Sequence record: PZ386960.1
Direction: 5' to 3' (one strand)
Length of the DNA: 39,643 bases
DNA from: a phage
Positions 5,440-26,444 of the stretch are shown here, piece after piece. The position numbers and the translations under genes are program-made. Position 1 is the first letter of the stretch, and each line of letters starts with the position of its first letter. The notes under the pieces are model-generated. The model saw only the letters and a list, made by a program, of their open reading frames with translations. It ran no database searches and was not told the origin of the DNA.

Positions 5440-8088
5440 ATGAACGTAATCAACGCACCAAAGAATGACTTCTCTGACATCGCTAACGCAATCCAGCCGT
5501 ACAACATTCTGGCTGACCATTACGGTGCACATCTGGCGGCTACGCAGTTACAGTTAGAACACGAAGCGCACACTGAGGGCGAGAAGCGTTTCCTTAAGGC
5601 AATGGAGCGTCAAATCAAAGCTGGTGAGTTCGGTGATAACGCAGTGGCTAAACCGCTCCTGTCATCCCTCGCACCGAAGTTCATCGAAGCGTGGAACACT
5701 TGGTTCACTGAAGTGGAAGCGAAGCGTGGCAAGCGTCCAGTGGCCTACAATCTGGTACAGAAGGTTGCACCTGAAGCTGCTGCATTCATCACACTGAAGG
5801 TCACACTGGCTTGCTTGACCAAAGAGGAATACACGAACCTTCAATCGGTCGCCACTAAGATTGGTCGCAGTATTGAGGATGAACTGCGTTTTGGTCGCAT
5901 CCGTGACGAAGAAGCGAAGCACTTTAAGAACCATGTACAGGAGGCACTGAACAAGCGCGTTGGTATCGTCTACAAGAAAGCATTCATGCAAGCCGTAGAG
6001 GGCAAGATGCTTGATGCTGGTCAACTGCAAACCAAGTGGACCACATGGACACCTGAAGAATCAATTCACGTTGGTGTGCGCATGTTGGAACTGCTCATTG
6101 GTTCTACTGGTCTCGTTGAGTTACACCGCCCGTTCGCTGGTAACGTTGAGAAGGATGGCGAGTACATCCAGTTAACCGAGCAATATGTTGACCTGCTGTC
6201 TAAACGTGCTGGTGCACTGGCTGCAATCGCTCCGATGTATCAACCTTGCGTGGTCCCTCCGAAGCCGTGGACTTCTCCGGTTGGTGGTGGCTATTGGGCT
6301 GCTGGTCGCAAGCCTCTCTCTCTGGTTCGCACTGGTAGCAAGAAGGGACTGGAACGTTACAACGATGTGTACATGCCTGAAGTTTACAAGGCGGTGAACA
6401 TCGCACAGAATACTCCTTGGAAGATTAACAAGAAGGTTCTGGCAGTGGTCAACGAGATTGTGAACTGGAAGCATTGCCCGGTTGAAGATATACCCGCTCT
6501 GGAACGTGGGGAACTCCCGGTCAAACCTGATGACATCGACACCAACGAGGCATCGCTCAAAGCGTGGAAGAAAGCGGCCTCCGCAATCTACCGCAAAGAG
6601 AAGGCACGAGTGTCACGCCGCATGAGCATGGAGTTCATGTTAGGACAAGCCAACAAGTTCGCGCAGTTCAAGGCTATCTGGTTCCCGATGAACATGGACT
6701 GGCGCGGTCGTGTGTACGCTGTGCCGATGTTTAACCCGCAAGGCAACGACATGACCAAAGGCTTGCTGACGCTCGCTAAAGGTAAACCAATCGGTGTCGA
6801 TGGGTACTACTGGCTGAAGATTCACGGTGCTAACACTGCTGGTGTGGACAAGGTGGACTTTGCAGAACGCATCAAGTTCATTGATGACAACCACGAGAAC
6901 ATCATGAGCGTTGCGGCTGACCCGATTGCTAACACTTGGTGGGCTGAACAAGACTCTCCGTTCTGCTTCCTCGCGTTCTGCTTTGAGTATGCGGGAGTCC
7001 AGCACCACGGGATGAACTACAACTGCTCTCTACCTCTGGCGTTCGATGGCTCTTGCTCCGGTATTCAGCACTTCTCCGCGATGCTCCGCGATGAGGTCGG
7101 TGGTCGTGCTGTTAACCTGCTACCAAGTAAGGAAGTACAGGACATCTACCGCATTGTTGCCGAACGTGTGAACGAGATGCTCCGCGAAGCGGTAATCAAC
7201 GGCACTGATAACGAAGTGGAAACCGTGACCAATAAAGACACCGGAGAAATCACTGAGAAGCTCAAGCTGGGAACGAAAGAGTTAGCTGGTCAGTGGCTGG
7301 CCTACGGTGTGACTCGCAAGGTCACTAAGCGTTCGGTCATGACGTTGGCTTACGGTTCCAAAGAGTACGGCTTCCGTGACCAAGTTCTTGAGGACACCAT
7401 TCAGCCAGCTATCGACGATGGCAAGGGCTTGATGTTCACTCAACCGAACCAAGCGGCTGGCTACATGGCTAAACTGATTTGGGAATCGGTAACGGTCACA
7501 GTTGTCGCAGCGGTTGAAGCGATGAACTGGTTGAAGTCTGCTGCTAAACTTCTGGCTGCTGAAGTCAAGGACAAGAAGACTAAAGAAGTCCTCCGCAAGC
7601 GTTGCGCAGTACATTGGGTTACTCCTGATGGCTTCCCGGTCTGGCAGGAATACAAGAAGCCAGTACAGACCCGCTTGAACCTGATGTTCTTAGGCCAGAT
7701 TCGTCTACAGCCTACCGTGAACACCAACAAGGATAGCGGTATTGATGCTCGTAAACAGGAGTCAGGCATCGCACCTAACTTTGTCCACTCAATGGATGGA
7801 AGCCACCTGAGAATGACTGTAGTGCGCTCCAATGAGGTCTACGGTGTGGAATCCTTCGCACTGATTCACGACTCCTTTGGCACTATCCCGGCTGATGCTG
7901 GCAACCTGTTTAAAGCAGTGCGTGAAACGATGGTCAACACTTACGAAGAGAACGATGTACTTGCAGACTTCTATGAGCAATTTGCTGACCAGTTGCACGA
8001 ATCACAGCTTGACAAGATGCCTGAGATGCCAGCTAAAGGTTCTCTGGACCTGCAAGAAATCCTTAAGTCAGACTTTGCGTTTGCCTAA
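5440..8088 (+). CDS. gp1: Single-subunit DNA-dependent RNA polymerase
   Basis: 882 aa (T7 RNAP 883); near-colinear with T7 RNAP, including the specificity loop QPTVNTNKDSGIDARKQ and the C-terminal FAFA. Confidence 0.98.
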   Translation: MNVINAPKNDFSDIANAIQPYNILADHYGAHLAATQLQLEHEAHTEGEKRFLKAMERQIKAGEFGDNAVAKPLLSSLAPKFIEAWNTWFTEVEAKRGKRPVAYNLVQKVAPEAAAFITLKVTLACLTKEEYTNLQSVATKIGRSIEDELRFGRIRDEEAKHFKNHVQEALNKRVGIVYKKAFMQAVEGKMLDAGQLQTKWTTWTPEESIHVGVRMLELLIGSTGLVELHRPFAGNVEKDGEYIQLTEQYVDLLSKRAGALAAIAPMYQPCVVPPKPWTSPVGGGYWAAGRKPLSLVRTGSKKGLERYNDVYMPEVYKAVNIAQNTPWKINKKVLAVVNEIVNWKHCPVEDIPALERGELPVKPDDIDTNEASLKAWKKAASAIYRKEKARVSRRMSMEFMLGQANKFAQFKAIWFPMNMDWRGRVYAVPMFNPQGNDMTKGLLTLAKGKPIGVDGYYWLKIHGANTAGVDKVDFAERIKFIDDNHENIMSVAADPIANTWWAEQDSPFCFLAFCFEYAGVQHHGMNYNCSLPLAFDGSCSGIQHFSAMLRDEVGGRAVNLLPSKEVQDIYRIVAERVNEMLREAVINGTDNEVETVTNKDTGEITEKLKLGTKELAGQWLAYGVTRKVTKRSVMTLAYGSKEYGFRDQVLEDTIQPAIDDGKGLMFTQPNQAAGYMAKLIWESVTVTVVAAVEAMNWLKSAAKLLAAEVKDKKTKEVLRKRCAVHWVTPDGFPVWQEYKKPVQTRLNLMFLGQIRLQPTVNTNKDSGIDARKQESGIAPNFVHSMDGSHLRMTVVRSNEVYGVESFALIHDSFGTIPADAGNLFKAVRETMVNTYEENDVLADFYEQFADQLHESQLDKMPEMPAKGSLDLQEILKSDFAFA

Positions 8089-8975: not shown

Positions 8976-9247
8976 TGGGTCGCTTATATAGTGGTAACTT
9001 AATAGCATACAAAGACGCTATCGAACGCCTCAAAGAAGACCATGATGTAAGCGTGGTCGAAGAGACATTCCGTTATGAGAACTATGCACAACGCCGATGG
9101 GTATCCGGTGAGACTCTCCGCATTGTTCTACGCAATGGCCTCGTACTGACATCCAAGTGTTTCGAACAGTCAGACGAAGATGTCCGGTGCAACGCACAGA
9201 CTGAGTGGCTCCGCAAGGTACACGCAGACCTGAAGCACTGGAAGTAA
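8975..9247 (+). CDS. gp1.2: Inhibitor of host dGTP triphosphohydrolase
   Basis: 90 aa; MGRLYSGNL start and C-terminal DLKHWK like T7 gp1.2 (MGRLYSGNL...QLKDWK); start overlaps the 1.1 stop. Confidence 0.85.
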   Translation: MGRLYSGNLIAYKDAIERLKEDHDVSVVEETFRYENYAQRRWVSGETLRIVLRNGLVLTSKCFEQSDEDVRCNAQTEWLRKVHADLKHWK

Positions 9248-9267
9248 TACGACTCACTATTGCGAAA
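9245..9267 (+). promoter_or_regulatory. Phage RNAP promoter (phi1.3-like, variant +2 C)
   Basis: TAATACGACTCACTATT-GCGAAA. Confidence 0.65.
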
Positions 9268-9269
9268 GA

Positions 9270-9312
9270 GTTAAACTAAAGGTCATCTTCACGGGTGGCC
9301 TTTGTGATTAAC
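9270..9312 (+). promoter_or_regulatory. RNase III processing site (R1.3-like)
   Basis: GTTAAACTAAAGGTCATCTTCACGGGTGGCCTTTGTGATTAAC. Confidence 0.6.
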
Positions 9313-9349
9313 TTTTGTTTACTTAATAACCAACAATAGGAGTTCCATC

Positions 9350-10381
9350 ATGGAAATCACATTCAAGACTAACCCTTTTAAAGCTGTATCCTACGTTGAG
9401 TCTGCCATTAAGAAAGCACTCGACAAAGCTGGCTACCTGATTGCTGACACTAAGCATGATGGTGTACGTGGTAACATCGTGGTTGACAATACGGCTGACT
9501 GCCTGTGGCTATCCCGTGTCTCTAAGACCATCCCCGCGCTTGAGCACCTTAATGGGTTCGACCAACGCTGGGCTAATGTTCTCAAAGATGACCGCTGGAT
9601 TTTCCCTGATGGCTTCATGCTGGATGGTGAATTGATGGTCAAAGGCGTAGACTTCAACACAGGGTCTGGCCTACTGCGTACCAAGTGGCTCAAGAAGACA
9701 AACTGTGAATTTGATATTGGTGGAGTAGAACCCCTCAAGGGGAGTAAAGTAGACTTCTGCTTAGACCCTAAGAAACTTAAGGTTGTACTGTATGCTGCTA
9801 TGCCGTATCACGATATGGTAGAAGGCAAAGAGTACGGCGTTATGTCACTCCTGATGCAAGAGCATGTGCGTTCCCTCATTCCTGTTCTTAGTGAACACTT
9901 CCCGGAAATCACTTGGGAACTATCTGAGGCCAAAGAAGTCTACGACATGGTAGAACTTCAGGAACTCTACGAGAAAGCCCGTGCTGAAGGTCATGAAGGT
10001 CTGGTCGTCAAAGACCCGCTGGAAGTCTACAAGCGTGGCAAGAAGTCTGGCTGGTGGAAGATGAAGCCTGAGAATGAAGCTGATGGTATTATCGTTGGTA
10101 TCAATTGGGGGACTAAAGGTCTCGCTAATGAAGGCAAAGTGATTGGCTTCGAGGTTCTCTTGGAGTCCGGTCGTGTAGTCTCTGCCAACAACATTAGTCA
10201 AGCGTTGATGGATGAGTTTACCGCTGCCGTAAAACATGCTGAGTCTGTGGGTATGGGTATGCCGTACACTGGCTTCGCCTGTCAGGTAGCCTACATGGAG
10301 GAAACTCCAGACGGTTCTCTGCGTCACCCATCGTTCGTTATGTTCCGTGGTGTAGAGTCAGACCCAACGGTCAAGATGTAA
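9350..10381 (+). CDS. gp1.3: ATP-dependent DNA ligase
   Basis: 343 aa; strong similarity to T7 ligase (KTNPFKAVSYVESAIKKALD, active-site K in TKHDGVRG, KSGWWKMKPENEADGII, SLRHPSFVMFRG). Confidence 0.95.
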   Translation: MEITFKTNPFKAVSYVESAIKKALDKAGYLIADTKHDGVRGNIVVDNTADCLWLSRVSKTIPALEHLNGFDQRWANVLKDDRWIFPDGFMLDGELMVKGVDFNTGSGLLRTKWLKKTNCEFDIGGVEPLKGSKVDFCLDPKKLKVVLYAAMPYHDMVEGKEYGVMSLLMQEHVRSLIPVLSEHFPEITWELSEAKEVYDMVELQELYEKARAEGHEGLVVKDPLEVYKRGKKSGWWKMKPENEADGIIVGINWGTKGLANEGKVIGFEVLLESGRVVSANNISQALMDEFTAAVKHAESVGMGMPYTGFACQVAYMEETPDGSLRHPSFVMFRGVESDPTVKM

Positions 10382-10394
10382 ATAAATCAATGGT

Positions 10395-10426
10395 CAGTCC
10401 TTAGCGGGGCTGGCCTTTTCGCGTTT
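10395..10426 (+). terminator. Early (host RNAP) intrinsic terminator, TE-like
   Basis: CAGTCC-TTAGCG-GGGCTG stem-loop followed by GCCTTTTCGCGTTT; tail resembles the T7 TE tail (GGCCTTTCTGCGTTT) and lies just after ligase. Confidence 0.6.
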
Positions 10427-10448
10427 CTATTAGACTCACTATGGAGGA
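10426..10448 (+). promoter_or_regulatory. Degenerate phage promoter-like element whose +1 region is GGAGG
   Basis: TTAGACTCACTAT-GGAGGAAC; core GACTCACTAT conserved, upstream part diverged. Confidence 0.4.
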
Positions 10449-10456
10449 ACAACCTC

Positions 10457-10537
10457 ATGCTATTTCTAATTGCTGCTGCTATCTTTGCCACGTTTGCCTT
10501 CGTTATCATTGACGACAACTGCTGGCCTGATTGCTAA
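10457..10537 (+). CDS. Hypothetical 26-aa hydrophobic peptide
   Basis: GGAGG 9 nt upstream; MLFLIAAAIFATFAFVIIDDNCWPDC; sits where T7 has small 1.4/1.5 genes. Confidence 0.35.
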   Translation: MLFLIAAAIFATFAFVIIDDNCWPDC

Positions 10538-10557
10538 TACGACTCACCTATGGAGGA
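10535..10557 (+). promoter_or_regulatory. Phage RNAP promoter variant (phi1.5/1.6-like)
   Basis: TAATACGACTCACCTAT-GGAGGAA. Confidence 0.55.
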
Positions 10558-10564
10558 AACACTT

Positions 10565-10828
10565 ATGTTACGACTACACTTCAACAAATCAAATGGCATC
10601 TTCTCTGCCCGTGGCGCTGACCGTTCAACCGTTCTGGCCTCTGAGAAACACGCAGTCATTCCTAAAGTGCTTGGCTCGACCATTGAGTTAGCACCTCGTG
10701 TTCACGCTGTAATCACCACTGGCTTATATAAAGAAGCGACCACTGGCTCCCGGCCTTTCATTCCGGTTCTCGTCACCCGTTTCCCTAAAGTCCGTCTGGT
10801 AATTGCGCGTATCAAGGAGGTGTTCTAA
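10565..10828 (+). CDS. gp1.6: Gene 1.6-like protein
   Basis: 87 aa (T7 gp1.6 is 88); GGAGG SD at 10552-10556; positional and length match only. Confidence 0.6.
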   Translation: MLRLHFNKSNGIFSARGADRSTVLASEKHAVIPKVLGSTIELAPRVHAVITTGLYKEATTGSRPFIPVLVTRFPKVRLVIARIKEVF

Positions 10829-11139
10829 TGGTCTGCATGGCATGTTTAGAGAATGATGACCGCTACCCACATACCTGTGAACCTGTAGCTAAACCACAAG
10901 ATATAGAGGGTGTTCGCAAGCCGAGCCACTATATGTTGTTTGATGATATTGAGGCTATCGAAGTGATTGCCCGGTCGATGACCCGTGAACAGTTCAAAGG
11001 TTACTGCTTAGGGAACATCCTGAAGTATCGCCTACGTGCTGGTAAGAAATCTGAACTGGCATTCTTAGAGAAGGACATGGCGAAAGCTGGGTTCTATGGT
11101 GAACTGTACGAGAAACATAAGGACAAGTGCTATGCTTAA
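10828..11139 (+). CDS. gp1.7: Gene 1.7-like protein (short form; T7 gp1.7 is a nucleotide kinase)
   Basis: 103 aa; translationally coupled (TAATG); position matches; half the length of T7 gp1.7, so function uncertain. Confidence 0.55.
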   Translation: MVCMACLENDDRYPHTCEPVAKPQDIEGVRKPSHYMLFDDIEAIEVIARSMTREQFKGYCLGNILKYRLRAGKKSELAFLEKDMAKAGFYGELYEKHKDKCYA

Positions 11140-11219
11140 TGACATCTTATGCTTCCTCTTAATTTGTGCTGGAATGGGCGCTTGCCTGTTCCTCATGTTT
11201 TGGGCTATAGAGGTGGAAT

Positions 11220-11318
11220 ATGGAAAAGCCTAGCGAATGGTGTGAGCGTATGTTTGAAAAGACAGGCAACACCGACTACCTTGAATTATATAATCACTGG
11301 AAGGAGAGAGGACAATGA
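11220..11318 (+). CDS. Gene 1.8-like small protein
   Basis: 32 aa; stop overlaps the gene 2 start (ATGA); positional equivalent of T7 1.8. Confidence 0.4.
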
Positions 11319-11506
11319 GCACTCTGAATAAAGGGTCACTGGTAAACGGTGACAAGAAGTTCTTCGCAACGGTCGAAGGCCAAGGCCAATCGTTCGAAGT
11401 CCCTGTGTTCGCTGCGTCTCTTGAAGAGGCCAATGAGTTAGCTGAGTGGCAATACGTCCCTGCTGGCTTCGCTGTAACACGCATCCGTCCAGACCGTAAG
11501 GTTTAA
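11315..11506 (+). CDS. gp2: Inhibitor of host RNA polymerase
   Basis: 63 aa; [53 protein letters not shown] closely matches T7 Gp2. Confidence 0.92.
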
Positions 11507-11526
11507 TAGGACTCACTAATGGGAGA
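11504..11526 (+). promoter_or_regulatory. Phage RNAP promoter (phi2.5-like)
   Basis: TAATAGGACTCACTAAT-GGGAGAC followed by a 5' stem-loop. Confidence 0.8.
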
Positions 11527-11574
11527 CACTAACGTTTCCCGCTTTTAACTTTCAGAAACTAAAGGAGAATCATT

Positions 11575-12273
11575 ATGGCATTCGCAAAACGTAAAGTATT
11601 CACTTCCGCTCGTGGTGTTGCTGAACCGTACTGCTATCTGGCAAAGCCGGACTTCGGTAGCGGTGACTTCAAGAACGAACGTGGTGTCTACAAAGTATCA
11701 CTGACTGTATCCAACGACGACCCGCGCTGTCAGAAAATGATTGACGAGATTGTCGAAGCCCATGAGACGGACTATGCTGCTCGACTCGAAGAGTACGAAG
11801 CGAACCCGCCGAAAGTTGTCAAGGGTAAGAAACCGCTGAAGCCATATGTTGGCGACATGCCTTTCATGGATAACGAAGATGGAACCACTACGTTCAACTT
11901 CAAGTGCTACGGCTCGTTCACTGACAAGAAGACTGGTGAGAACAAACCAATCGACTTGGCTATCGTGGACTCCAAGGGCAAGCGCATTCGTGGTGAACGT
12001 CCAGCTATCTCTGGTGGCTCTGAACTGAAAATCAAATACACCCTGTTCCCTTACGGTTGGTCTGCTGTAGCAGGTGCTTCCGTTAAGCTGCAACTGGATT
12101 CTGTGATGCTGATTAAGCTGGTCGAGTTCGGTGGTGGTGATGACGATTGGTCAGATGAAATCGAAGAAGATGGCTACGAAGCTGATGAAGCACAGACCCG
12201 CAAGCCGCAGAACGACTCTGGCTGGGATGAAGAACCAGAAGAGGATGATGAAGACGAAGATGGTGACTTCTAA
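11575..12273 (+). CDS. gp2.5: Single-stranded DNA-binding protein
   Basis: 232 aa (same as T7); FTSARGVAEPYCYLAKPD, PRCQKMIDEIV, acidic C-terminal tail ending DEDGDF. Confidence 0.95.
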   Translation: MAFAKRKVFTSARGVAEPYCYLAKPDFGSGDFKNERGVYKVSLTVSNDDPRCQKMIDEIVEAHETDYAARLEEYEANPPKVVKGKKPLKPYVGDMPFMDNEDGTTTFNFKCYGSFTDKKTGENKPIDLAIVDSKGKRIRGERPAISGGSELKIKYTLFPYGWSAVAGASVKLQLDSVMLIKLVEFGGGDDDWSDEIEEDGYEADEAQTRKPQNDSGWDEEPEEDDEDEDGDF

Positions 12274-12726
12274 ATGACACTTAAGGAGAAACTGGAGGCT
12301 TACTCTAAAGTATCTCCTACTGGCTGCTGGGAGTGGCAACGCTCTCGGCTACCTTCTGGCTATGGACTCATATCTATAGGACACCAGAAGCAAGCATACA
12401 CACACCGAGTGTCTTACCAAGAGTTTCATGGAGAAATTCCTGAGGGTCTTGTTGTTAGACATAAATGTGATAACCCTTGTTGTTGTAACCCTGAACATCT
12501 TGAGGTTGGTACTCACAAAGATAACATGCAGGACTGCAAGAAACGAGGACGCATGGTGATGCCGCCAGTACATGTAGGAGAAGCTAATCACAAGACTAAG
12601 CTGACCGAGAGTGACGTCGAGTTCATTCTGAAATCTGATAAGACGCTAAAGGAACTTGCTGAGATGTTCGGAGTTACTCCACAAGCAATACGTTGGAGGA
12701 AGAGTCATGGCAGGTTACGGCGCTAA
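12274..12726 (+). CDS. HNH homing endonuclease-like protein
   Basis: 150 aa; HKCDNPCCCNPEHLEVGTHKDNMQD HNH/zinc motif; ATG overlaps the 2.5 stop; 3' end overlaps the gene 3 start by 20 nt. Confidence 0.8.
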   Translation: MTLKEKLEAYSKVSPTGCWEWQRSRLPSGYGLISIGHQKQAYTHRVSYQEFHGEIPEGLVVRHKCDNPCCCNPEHLEVGTHKDNMQDCKKRGRMVMPPVHVGEANHKTKLTESDVEFILKSDKTLKELAEMFGVTPQAIRWRKSHGRLRR

Positions 12727-16374: not shown

Positions 16375-16397
16375 CTATTCAACTCACTAATGGGAGA
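16375..16397 (+). promoter_or_regulatory. Phage RNAP promoter (phi4.7-like; diverged upstream half)
   Basis: CTATTCAACTCACTAAT-GGGAGAA. Confidence 0.55.
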
Positions 16398-16405
16398 ACA
16401 ATACT

Positions 16406-16822
16406 ATGCGTAATCGTAATGTAATCGAAGCTGAAATCACTAAACTGGAAGCTGAACTGGCAGATGTTAAAGAGTATGAATGTGCTCGTGACTCTGCTGT
16501 CCACATCCTGAAGAACTTAGGGTGGACACGCAAGTACGGCAAGTGGGTCAAACCAGTAGCCAAGTGTGGTAGAGTTGGTATGCAGACTTTCGACGCAGAC
16601 AAGATGACCCACATTAAGGCTGGGGACTTCTGCACCTCCACCAGCAACGCAGACATTTGGTATGTCCGTAAGGTCGAAGGGACAGACATTTGGTGCTCCC
16701 GTGTGACTCGCATTGATGCAATGGGTACAGTCGCTGGGATTCAGTACCACAAGATGAACCACAAGAACCTGCGTGTGGTTGACCCTAAGAACTTCATGGG
16801 ATACCGCAAATCTACATTTTAA
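16406..16822 (+). CDS. gp4.7: Gene 4.7-like protein
   Basis: 138 aa (T7 gp4.7 is 135); positional match. Confidence 0.65.
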   Translation: MRNRNVIEAEITKLEAELADVKEYECARDSAVHILKNLGWTRKYGKWVKPVAKCGRVGMQTFDADKMTHIKAGDFCTSTSNADIWYVRKVEGTDIWCSRVTRIDAMGTVAGIQYHKMNHKNLRVVDPKNFMGYRKSTF

Positions 16823-20875: not shown

Positions 20876-20898
20876 CAATACGACTCACTATGGGAGAG
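20876..20898 (+). promoter_or_regulatory. Phage RNAP promoter (phi6.5-like)
   Basis: CAATACGACTCACTAT-GGGAGAGGG. Confidence 0.75.
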
Positions 20899-25779: not shown

Positions 25780-25823
25780 AAACCCCCTTGGGTGCCTTCG
25801 CGGGTGCTTGAGGGGTTTTTTTC
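25780..25823 (+). terminator. Tphi-like terminator
   Basis: AAACCCCCTTGGGTGCCTTCGCGGGTGCTTGAGGGG followed by T7; same architecture and position as T7 Tphi. Confidence 0.85.
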
Positions 25824-25845
25824 TTAATGACTCACTAATGGGAGG
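25823..25845 (+). promoter_or_regulatory. Phage promoter-like element upstream of gene 11 (one base short in the upstream half)
   Basis: CTTAATGACTCACTAAT-GGGAGGA. Confidence 0.55.
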
Positions 25846-25853
25846 AAACCTAT

Positions 25854-26444
25854 ATGCGTTCCTATGAGACTACCCTAGAGACTGGTGAAGAGTTGGCTGC
25901 GGTCAATGACATCTTGGCCTCTATCGGTGAACCACCTGTGTCCACTCTGGAGGGTGATGCTAACGCTGACGTTGCTAACGCTCGCCGAATACTCAATAAG
26001 ATTAACCGTCAGATTCAGTCCAAGGGCTGGACGTTCAACATCGAGGAAGGCCAACAGTTATTGCCAGATGTGTTCAACGGTCTGATTCCCTACATGTCCG
26101 ACTACCTTGCTGTGTTCTCTGAAGGAGGTACTACAGCTTACGTCAACCGTGGCGGCTATGTGTATGACCGAGAGAACAGCACTGATGTCTTCAAAGACCC
26201 AATCACTGTGACTATCATCCGACTGCGAGAGTTCTATGAGATGCCTGAATGCTTCCGCTACTGGATTGTCACCAAGGCCGCTCGTCAGTTCAACAACAGG
26301 TTCTTTGGCGCTCCTGAGATTGACGCAGTGCTGTCTGAAGAGGAACAGGAAGCAAAGATGCAGTGTGCTGAATACGAACTGGACTTCGGTAACTTCAACA
26401 TGCTTGATGGTGATGCCTTCACTGGCGGTCTGCTGTCTCGCTAA
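25854..26444 (+). CDS. gp11: Tail tubular protein A
   Basis: 196 aa (same as T7 gp11); position after Tphi. Confidence 0.93.

Follow-up and report, generated by a model that had tools for sequence, protein, structure and literature searches.

The region downstream of the DNA ligase gene in the phage sequence PZ386960.1 (39,643 nucleotides, analysed over its whole length and referred to here as the window) is in our estimation, with a probability of about 0.88, the orthologue of the T7 module TE - phi1.5 - gene 1.5 - phi1.6 - gene 1.6, which here is more compact, lacks gene 1.4 and would form the end of the early host-RNAP unit in Berlinvirus. The layout of TE, phi1.5 and phi1.6 is the textbook T7 arrangement and is already known and annotated in close relatives. 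An earlier note on this DNA had described a TE-like hairpin with its tail, two promoter-like elements and two ATG codons past the ligase gene; all of these are present, within 3 nt of the positions given there. Its reading of them as a TE-like host terminator followed by two variant promoters of the phage RNAP is supported by orthology, namely by the BA14 annotation and the T7 record. The value of the present analysis lies mainly in annotation, with exact positions for TE, phi1.5, phi1.6 and gene 1.5, a 26-aa gene that is easily overlooked.

The window shares 93-97% identity with Berlinvirus phages (Studiervirinae, T7-like). The best identity over 24 kb is about 93% to T7-like Berlinvirus phages (PhiV-1 about 93%); over the 1.9 kb around the module, identity reaches 97.5% with Escherichia phage PhiV-1 and about 95% with 285P and BA14. 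Since window position 2600 aligns to PhiV-1 position 119, the window represents a circularly permuted complete genome. The 191-nt module was recovered in 88 phage records at 81-98% identity, its hosts all being of the Berlinvirus type. Gene 1 (5440-8088) encodes a single-subunit RNAP sharing 77% identity with T7 RNAP, and the specificity-loop residues R746, N748, R756 and Q758 of the T7 enzyme are unchanged in it; a cognate polymerase with matching specificity determinants is encoded in the same genome. Gene 1.3 (9350-10381, + strand), an open reading frame of 343 aa for an ATP-dependent DNA ligase whose homologous coding sequences are annotated as DNA ligase or gp1.3 in BA14, Kvp1, ETEP21B and 285P, is the last early (class I) gene and ends with a TAA stop at 10379-10381.

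All occurrences of GACTCAC in the genome were listed, and a weight matrix was derived from 11 canonical promoters of this genome (consensus TAATACGACTCACTAWTGGGAR). Scanning with this matrix returned 18 promoter-like sites, every one on the + strand. phi1.6 scored 21.1 bits and phi1.5 11.5 bits, the best non-promoter site on either strand reached 4.6 bits, and the top scores in 20 shuffled genomes ranged from 0.6 to 11.1 bits. phi1.6 is clearly non-random, and phi1.5 is marginal on score alone; comparative evidence was needed for the latter because its score is only marginally above the shuffles. Both sites match the 23-bp phage consensus (-17 to +6) on the coding strand and point in the same direction as all genes. 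Conservation was assessed in 14 distinct Berlinvirus sequences, comprising the window and 13 others from sequence records and IMG/VR contigs. A search pattern encoding DDNxWPDC was used to retrieve the IMG/VR relatives, so that invariance of this motif inside the set is given by construction; the comparisons with T3, BA14, Kvp1, PhiV-1 and ETEP21B are independent of this pattern.

The TE hairpin (10392-10415, + strand) was predicted by folding to have a 10-bp G+C-rich stem, GGUCAGUCCU/GGGGCUGGCC, and the loop UAGC, and is followed by the U-rich tail TTTTCGCGTTT (UUUUCGCGUUU; 10416-10426, + strand), hairpin and tail together spanning 10392-10426. The earlier note had located the hairpin here but let it start at 10395, and its start is at 10392. 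It begins 11 nt past the ligase stop, at a position that matches BA14, Kvp1, T3 and T7, and its homologues are annotated as TE in BA14, T3 and T7. The T7 TE carries the tail TTTCTGCGTTT after GGGCC. The window hairpin folds with a minimum free energy of -16.6 kcal/mol (z = -3.3 against shuffles), and the hairpins of BA14, Kvp1, T3 and T7, each folded alone, reach -14 to -17.5 kcal/mol despite unlike stem sequences. Single-sequence folding was used because RNAalifold on nine terminators returned only 5 pairs, the T3 and T7 stems having been placed out of register by MAFFT. Between the stems of BA14 and the window a compensatory change was observed, GGUCAGAC/GUCUGGCC against GGUCAGUCC/GGGCUGGCC, in which U:G of the window type becomes A:U of the BA14 type. 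Among the 14 Berlinvirus sequences, all 13 columns of the spacer ahead of the hairpin and 3 of the 4 loop columns vary, and the tail varies at 2 of its 11 columns. Position -17 of phi1.5 directly adjoins this U-tail. No host sigma-70 promoter was detected on either strand between 10380 and 10580, and a search of 9000-12000 against Rfam gave no match at E <= 1. Taken with its position, the fold suggests that TE is here a homologue of T7 TE and an intrinsic terminator, at which host RNAP would stop as it does in T7.

T7-type promoters consist of a binding domain (-17 to -5) and an initiation domain (-4 to +3/+4), class II promoters being the weaker ones (PMC11617373). phi1.5 (10427-10449, + strand) reads CTATTAGACTCACTATG/GAGGAA, the slash preceding position +1, and is predicted to be a weak class II-type promoter of the phage RNAP on the basis of the matrix, its conservation and the BA14 annotation. 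GACTCAC is kept at -11 to -5, as in every other promoter, which places +1 on the second G of GGAGG (10444); BA14 is annotated likewise, and a one-base shift of register takes the matrix score down from 11.5 bits to -44.6 bits. The transcript is predicted to begin GAGGAAC, with a G at -1 and GAGG at +1 to +4, and would begin GGAGG if the enzyme starts at -1 (10443); the predicted leader is 13 nt long. The Shine-Dalgarno sequence GGAGG of gene 1.5 (10443-10447, + strand) extends over -1 to +4, is separated from the ATG at 10457 by 9 nt and is invariant in the relatives. phi1.5 departs from the consensus at -16, -13, -12, -1, +2 and +4, of which -13 and -12 vary among the relatives. None of the 17 columns from -11 to +6 is variable in the 14 sequences, and 3 of the 7 leader columns are. 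The invariant stretch GACTCACTAT at -11 to -2 lies upstream of the Shine-Dalgarno sequence and has no ribosome-binding role; its invariance speaks for selection on phi1.5 as a promoter in spite of the low score, even if the activity of phi1.5 may be very weak. We also considered a hairpin in the phi1.5 leader that would sequester the Shine-Dalgarno sequence (GAGG...CCUC; 4 bp predicted, z = 0.41), which was judged incidental since CCUC is changed to CCCC or CCAC in relatives without compensation.

Gene 1.5 (10457-10537, + strand) encodes the 26-aa hydrophobic peptide MLFLIAAAIFATFAFVIIDDNCWPDC and is annotated as gp1.5 in BA14, Kvp1, 285P and PhiV-1. The peptide matches phrog_10145 over residues 1-26 of 26 (E = 2.8e-17), and T3 gp1.5 matches the same family with E = 2.8e-16. 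The reading frame and its length are preserved in 14 relatives. Over codons 1-18, 21 of 54 columns vary among the 14 Berlinvirus sequences, and the substitutions in residues 2-18 exchange one hydrophobic residue for another, barring one Ser and one Thr. The C-terminal DDNIWPDC is common to the window peptide and to T3 gp1.5, which was fetched independently of the search pattern. These data are good evidence that gene 1.5 is a real micro-protein gene, as judged from its sequence and that of its relatives. Homology to T7 gp1.5 was not detected, the window peptide matching phrog_10145 only, against phrog_12128 for the T7 protein; the two proteins sit at the same place in the gene order and have in common no more than a general design, with a hydrophobic N-terminus and an acidic C-terminus, DDx(W/M)PD. 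T7 Gp1.5 was recently reported to impair growth when expressed, an effect that stringent-like RNAP backgrounds relieve (PMC13483052). Because the two proteins belong to different PHROGs, this toxicity is not transferable to the window peptide.

The TAA stop of gene 1.5 coincides with positions -17 to -15 of phi1.6 (10535-10557, + strand; TAATACGACTCACCTAT/GGAGGA), a class II-type promoter of the phage RNAP that is annotated in BA14 and ETEP21B and has its predicted +1 at 10552. Its positions +1 to +5 are at the same time the Shine-Dalgarno sequence GGAGG of gene 1.6 (10552-10556, + strand), which is followed after 8 nt by the ATG at 10565, and the predicted leader measures 13 nt. Both -17 to -5 (0/13 columns variable) and +1 to +6 (0/6) are invariant in the 14 Berlinvirus sequences; position -4 is C, A or deleted among the relatives, and the leader is variable at 4/7 columns. 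Gene 1.6 (10565-10828, + strand) encodes 87 aa of the BC10 family (Pfam PF06726, E = 3.9e-19; phrog_1777, E = 2.9e-38), and its start at 10565 agrees with the gp1.6 starts in BA14, Kvp1, T7 and T3. An earlier candidate start in frame, the ATG at 10550, falls at -2 to +1 of phi1.6, and the 92-aa version of gene 1.6 that begins there in some automated records is probably wrong. In T7, gene 1.6 is nonessential and its function is unknown (PMC2680503).

The low score of phi1.5 raises the question whether the promoter-like matches are genuine. Chance similarity in an intergenic spacer would fit the near equality of the phi1.5 score with the best score of the shuffled genomes. The 21.1 bits of phi1.6 speak against it, and so do the location of both sites on the coding strand at positions orthologous to T7 phi1.5 and phi1.6 and the invariance of their cores across relatives; conservation and orthology effectively refute this reading, and we give it practically no weight. 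A more specific concern is that phi1.5 is decayed and inactive, with its 3' half kept only as the ribosome-binding site of gene 1.5, which would then be expressed from upstream read-through alone. phi1.5 has indeed the lowest matrix score of the promoter-like sites (11.5 bits, compared with 15.6-39.7 for the rest and 11.1 for the best shuffle). Compared with the consensus TAATAC, its upstream half CTATTA is changed at -17, -16, -13 and -12, the C at -17 being found also in canonical promoters, and it varies among relatives (TTA, TTC, TAC, TAT); the initiation domain moreover has two unfavourable bases, G at -1 and A at +2 (PMC11617373). Decay would nevertheless leave the invariance of GACTCACTAT (-11 to -2) in 14 sequences, between adjacent spacers that vary, without a reason, and a similar upstream half, CTATTC, occurs in T7 phi4.7, a recorded promoter. 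When T7 was evolved under altered RNAP specificity, changes arose in only five promoters; phi1.5 was one of them, and its change went to fixation in each of the four lines (PMC6171733), indicating that this promoter is relevant to fitness. We therefore consider a decayed phi1.5 unlikely and retain the interpretation of phi1.5 as a weak but selected promoter.

A further explanation, put forward in the earlier note, concerns the origin of the two promoter-SD-ATG units, which were taken to be a local tandem duplication that has since diverged. The units lie next to each other with 77% identity across 35 aligned positions, each encodes a protein that starts with Met-Leu, the non-consensus TATGGAGGAA is common to both units, and in one relative (L016) phi1.6 has CAC-TATGGAGG, exactly as phi1.5 does. 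The pairwise identity is no higher than that to promoters that are not adjacent or are heterologous: phi1.5 and T7 phi4.7 are 76% identical, phi4.7 and phi11 of the window 77%, and phi1.6 and T7 phi1.6 82%. Outside the units the resemblance is no better than chance, both over 40 nt on the upstream side (p = 0.25) and over 60 nt on the downstream side (p = 0.44); gp1.5 (phrog_10145) and gp1.6 (phrog_1777/BC10) are unrelated. Each unit has its own T7 orthologue, so that any duplication would be older than the split between Teseptimavirus and Berlinvirus, and the resemblance is indistinguishable from convergence under shared promoter and Shine-Dalgarno constraints. The similarity ends at the promoter-SD-ATG cassette, and a duplication, which need not be assumed, is not supported by the sequences compared; we regard it as still less probable than the decay of phi1.5.

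Each predicted transcript opens at a GGAGG, and a conserved start codon follows 8-9 nt later. The spacing of 8-9 nt between GGAGG and ATG reported in the earlier note is correct, being 9 nt for the 26-aa ORF and 8 nt for gene 1.6. Its proposal that the initiating GGAGG of each transcript doubles as the Shine-Dalgarno sequence holds as worded for phi1.6, where GGAGG occupies +1 to +5; it does so only in part for phi1.5, where the register set by GACTCAC puts +1 on the second G and leaves GAGG at the 5' end. The use of GGAGG as a Shine-Dalgarno sequence in this position is a long-recorded property of the T7 group. The literature searched contained no explicit statement on translation from 5'-terminal Shine-Dalgarno sequences and nothing direct on promoter/RBS overlap in T7; with no direct published statement found, the overlap is argued from the coordinates of the T7 reference record.

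Reasoning from T7, E. coli RNAP coming from the early promoters would halt at TE, and the phage RNAP would pass TE and also start weakly at phi1.5 and phi1.6. The resulting mRNAs with 13-nt leaders would pair with 16S rRNA through their 5'-terminal (G)GAGG, and ribosomes would use the same GGAGG on the longer transcripts that read through from phi1.05, phi1.1 and phi1.3. What allows such an overlap is that the promoter's initiation half (-4 to +6, consensus GGGAGA) tolerates change and is already SD-like; its cost would be a weaker, class II-type promoter. One may go further and imagine that T7-like promoters have repeatedly been born and lost by mutation of the roughly 17 bp in front of a Shine-Dalgarno sequence that was already there, with phi1.5, phi1.6, phi4.7 and phi11 as products. 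This would be workable since the preferred start of the polymerase, GGGAGA, is itself a Shine-Dalgarno sequence. We offer this as a speculation that we doubt, though less strongly than the duplication or the decay of phi1.5. If it were true, mRNAs with a Shine-Dalgarno sequence at the 5' end might be translated unlike read-through ones, and the origin of a transcript would set the yield.

The T7 TE, the class II promoters phi1.5 and phi1.6 and genes 1.5 and 1.6 were reportedly first described by Dunn and Studier in 1983. The T7 reference record NC_001604 lists TE at 7588, the phi1.5 +1 at 7778 with gene 1.5 at 7791, and the phi1.6 +1 at 7895 with gene 1.6 at 7906. T7 resembles the window in the order of the elements after the ligase gene, in the homologous hairpin with a tail of the GGCC-TTTCTGCGTTT type, in the BC10 homologue encoded by gene 1.6, in having GGAG(G) at +1 of both promoters, and in the TAA of gene 1.5, which likewise provides -17 to -15 of phi1.6. 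Its promoters read TAATACGACTCACTAAA/GGAGGTACACACC-ATG (phi1.5) and TAATACGACTCACTAAA/GGAGACACTAT-ATG (phi1.6). Unlike the window, T7 has gene 1.4 between TE and phi1.5, and its ligase stop and gene 1.6 ATG are 351 nt apart, as compared with 183 nt in the window. The promoters of T7 carry TAAA at -4 to -1, where those of the window have TATG and CTAT; window phi1.5 differs from its T7 counterpart by the G at -1 and by a divergent upstream half.

The closest correspondence was found within Berlinvirus. BA14 (EU734171) annotates TE, phi1.5, gp1.5 (81 nt), phi1.6 and gp1.6 after gp1.3. Its phi1.5 23-mer (CTATTAGACTCACTATGGAGGAA) and its phi1.6 are identical to those of the window, the 13-nt leaders are the same and gp1.5 also has 26 aa, five of which, all in its hydrophobic part, are different. 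In ETEP21B a terminator and two promoters are annotated at matching places, and in Kvp1 a terminator, phi1.5 and gp1.5, phi1.6 having been left unannotated by its authors. T3 (NC_003298) has TE directly after the ligase gene, as the window does, and its phi1.5, CATTAACCCTCACTAAC/AGGAGACACACACC-ATG, has AGGAG at +1 and a 14-nt leader in front of a gp1.5 of the same PHROG. It differs in that this promoter is of T3 specificity (ATTAACCCTCAC), and in that phi1.6 is missing and gene 1.6 is preceded by a plain TAAGGAGAC ribosome-binding site.

The same design recurs elsewhere in these genomes, at T7 phi4.3 and phi4.7, at Kvp1 phi11 and at the window sites 16375-16397 and 25823-25845. In these short-leader promoters the initially transcribed GGAG or GGGAG(G/A) is the sole Shine-Dalgarno sequence and the ATG lies 11-14 nt from +1; phi1.5 and phi1.6 of the window likewise have GGAG(G) near +1 and a conserved ORF that starts 11-14 nt from it. 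In T7, GGAG is found at +1 of phi1.5, phi1.6, phi4.3 and phi4.7, and their leaders measure 11-13 nt (11 for phi4.3, 12 for phi4.7), whereas phi4.7 and phi11 of the window keep the consensus GGGAG and not GGAGG. Ahead of gene 11 the window has a promoter and BA14 only CAACAGGAGGAAACC, a difference that would correspond to one gain or loss if promoters arise from Shine-Dalgarno sequences. Taken together, a class II promoter, a stop codon and a ribosome-binding site that share bases represent a T7 design that is conserved across Teseptimavirus, Teetrevirus and Berlinvirus.

The ORF finder placed the start of gene 1.6 in the window at ATG 10550 (92 aa), and the PhiV-1 and ETEP21B records begin the gene at the same codon. 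This ATG overlaps positions -2 to +1 of phi1.6, the phage RNAP promoter at 10535-10557 (+), and lacks a Shine-Dalgarno (SD) sequence. Since homology to gp1.6 of T7, T3, BA14 and Kvp1 starts at ATG 10565 (87 aa), the 92-aa call is probably an annotation error. The leader of phi1.5, the weak promoter upstream of gene 1.5, reads GAGGAACAACCUC-AUG (10444-10459) and could form a 4-bp hairpin in which the SD pairs with CCUC just 5' of the AUG. This pairing is probably incidental, because two relatives have CCCC or CCAC instead of CCUC and show no compensatory change.

A third short-leader promoter, i.e. one whose initial transcribed bases double as SD, is the phi4.7 homologue (16375-16408), in which CTATTCAACTCACTAAT is followed from +1 by GGGAGA, acaatact and the ATG, giving a leader of 14 nt. 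The unusual upstream half CTATTC of T7 phi4.7 is common to this homologue and to phi1.5 of the window. The phi6.5 homologue (20876-20898; CAATACGACTCACTATG followed at +1 by GGAGAG) shares with phi1.5 the CACTATG-G junction, with G at -1; equivalently, GGGAGA lies one base nearer than usual. BA14 has phi6.5 annotated as 24 nt, and after it comes an ORF of 30 aa whose product is unknown.

The window holds the genome in circularly permuted form (relevant positions 1-2600 and 39643). The physical end is inferred near 2480, between a phiOR-like (1896) and a phiOL-like promoter (2904), because window position 2600 aligns with PhiV-1 position 119. Directly 3' of gene 2.5 lies a 150-aa ORF (12274-12726) with a Cys- and His-rich sequence, HKCDNPCCCNPEHLE, which looks like an HNH homing endonuclease. 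Gene 2.8 occupies this position in T7, whereas in BA14 gene 3 adjoins 2.5 directly and gp2.8 is found elsewhere.

At 25781-25857, the hairpin and T-run of the late terminator Tphi are followed by a promoter-like site and the start of gene 11. This site (25823-25845; 15.6 bits against the matrix of 11 canonical promoters) comes directly after the T-run and reads CTTAATGACTCACTAAT and, from +1, GGGAGG. The latter is the SD of gene 11 (ATG 25855), again with a leader of 14 nt. Kvp1 carries the same site upstream of gene 11, annotated as phi11, whereas BA14 has no promoter before gene 11, just CGCTACAACAGGAGGAAACCATT-ATG. The SD of gene 11 is fixed while the promoter is present (window, Kvp1) or absent (BA14), which is a presence/absence polymorphism.
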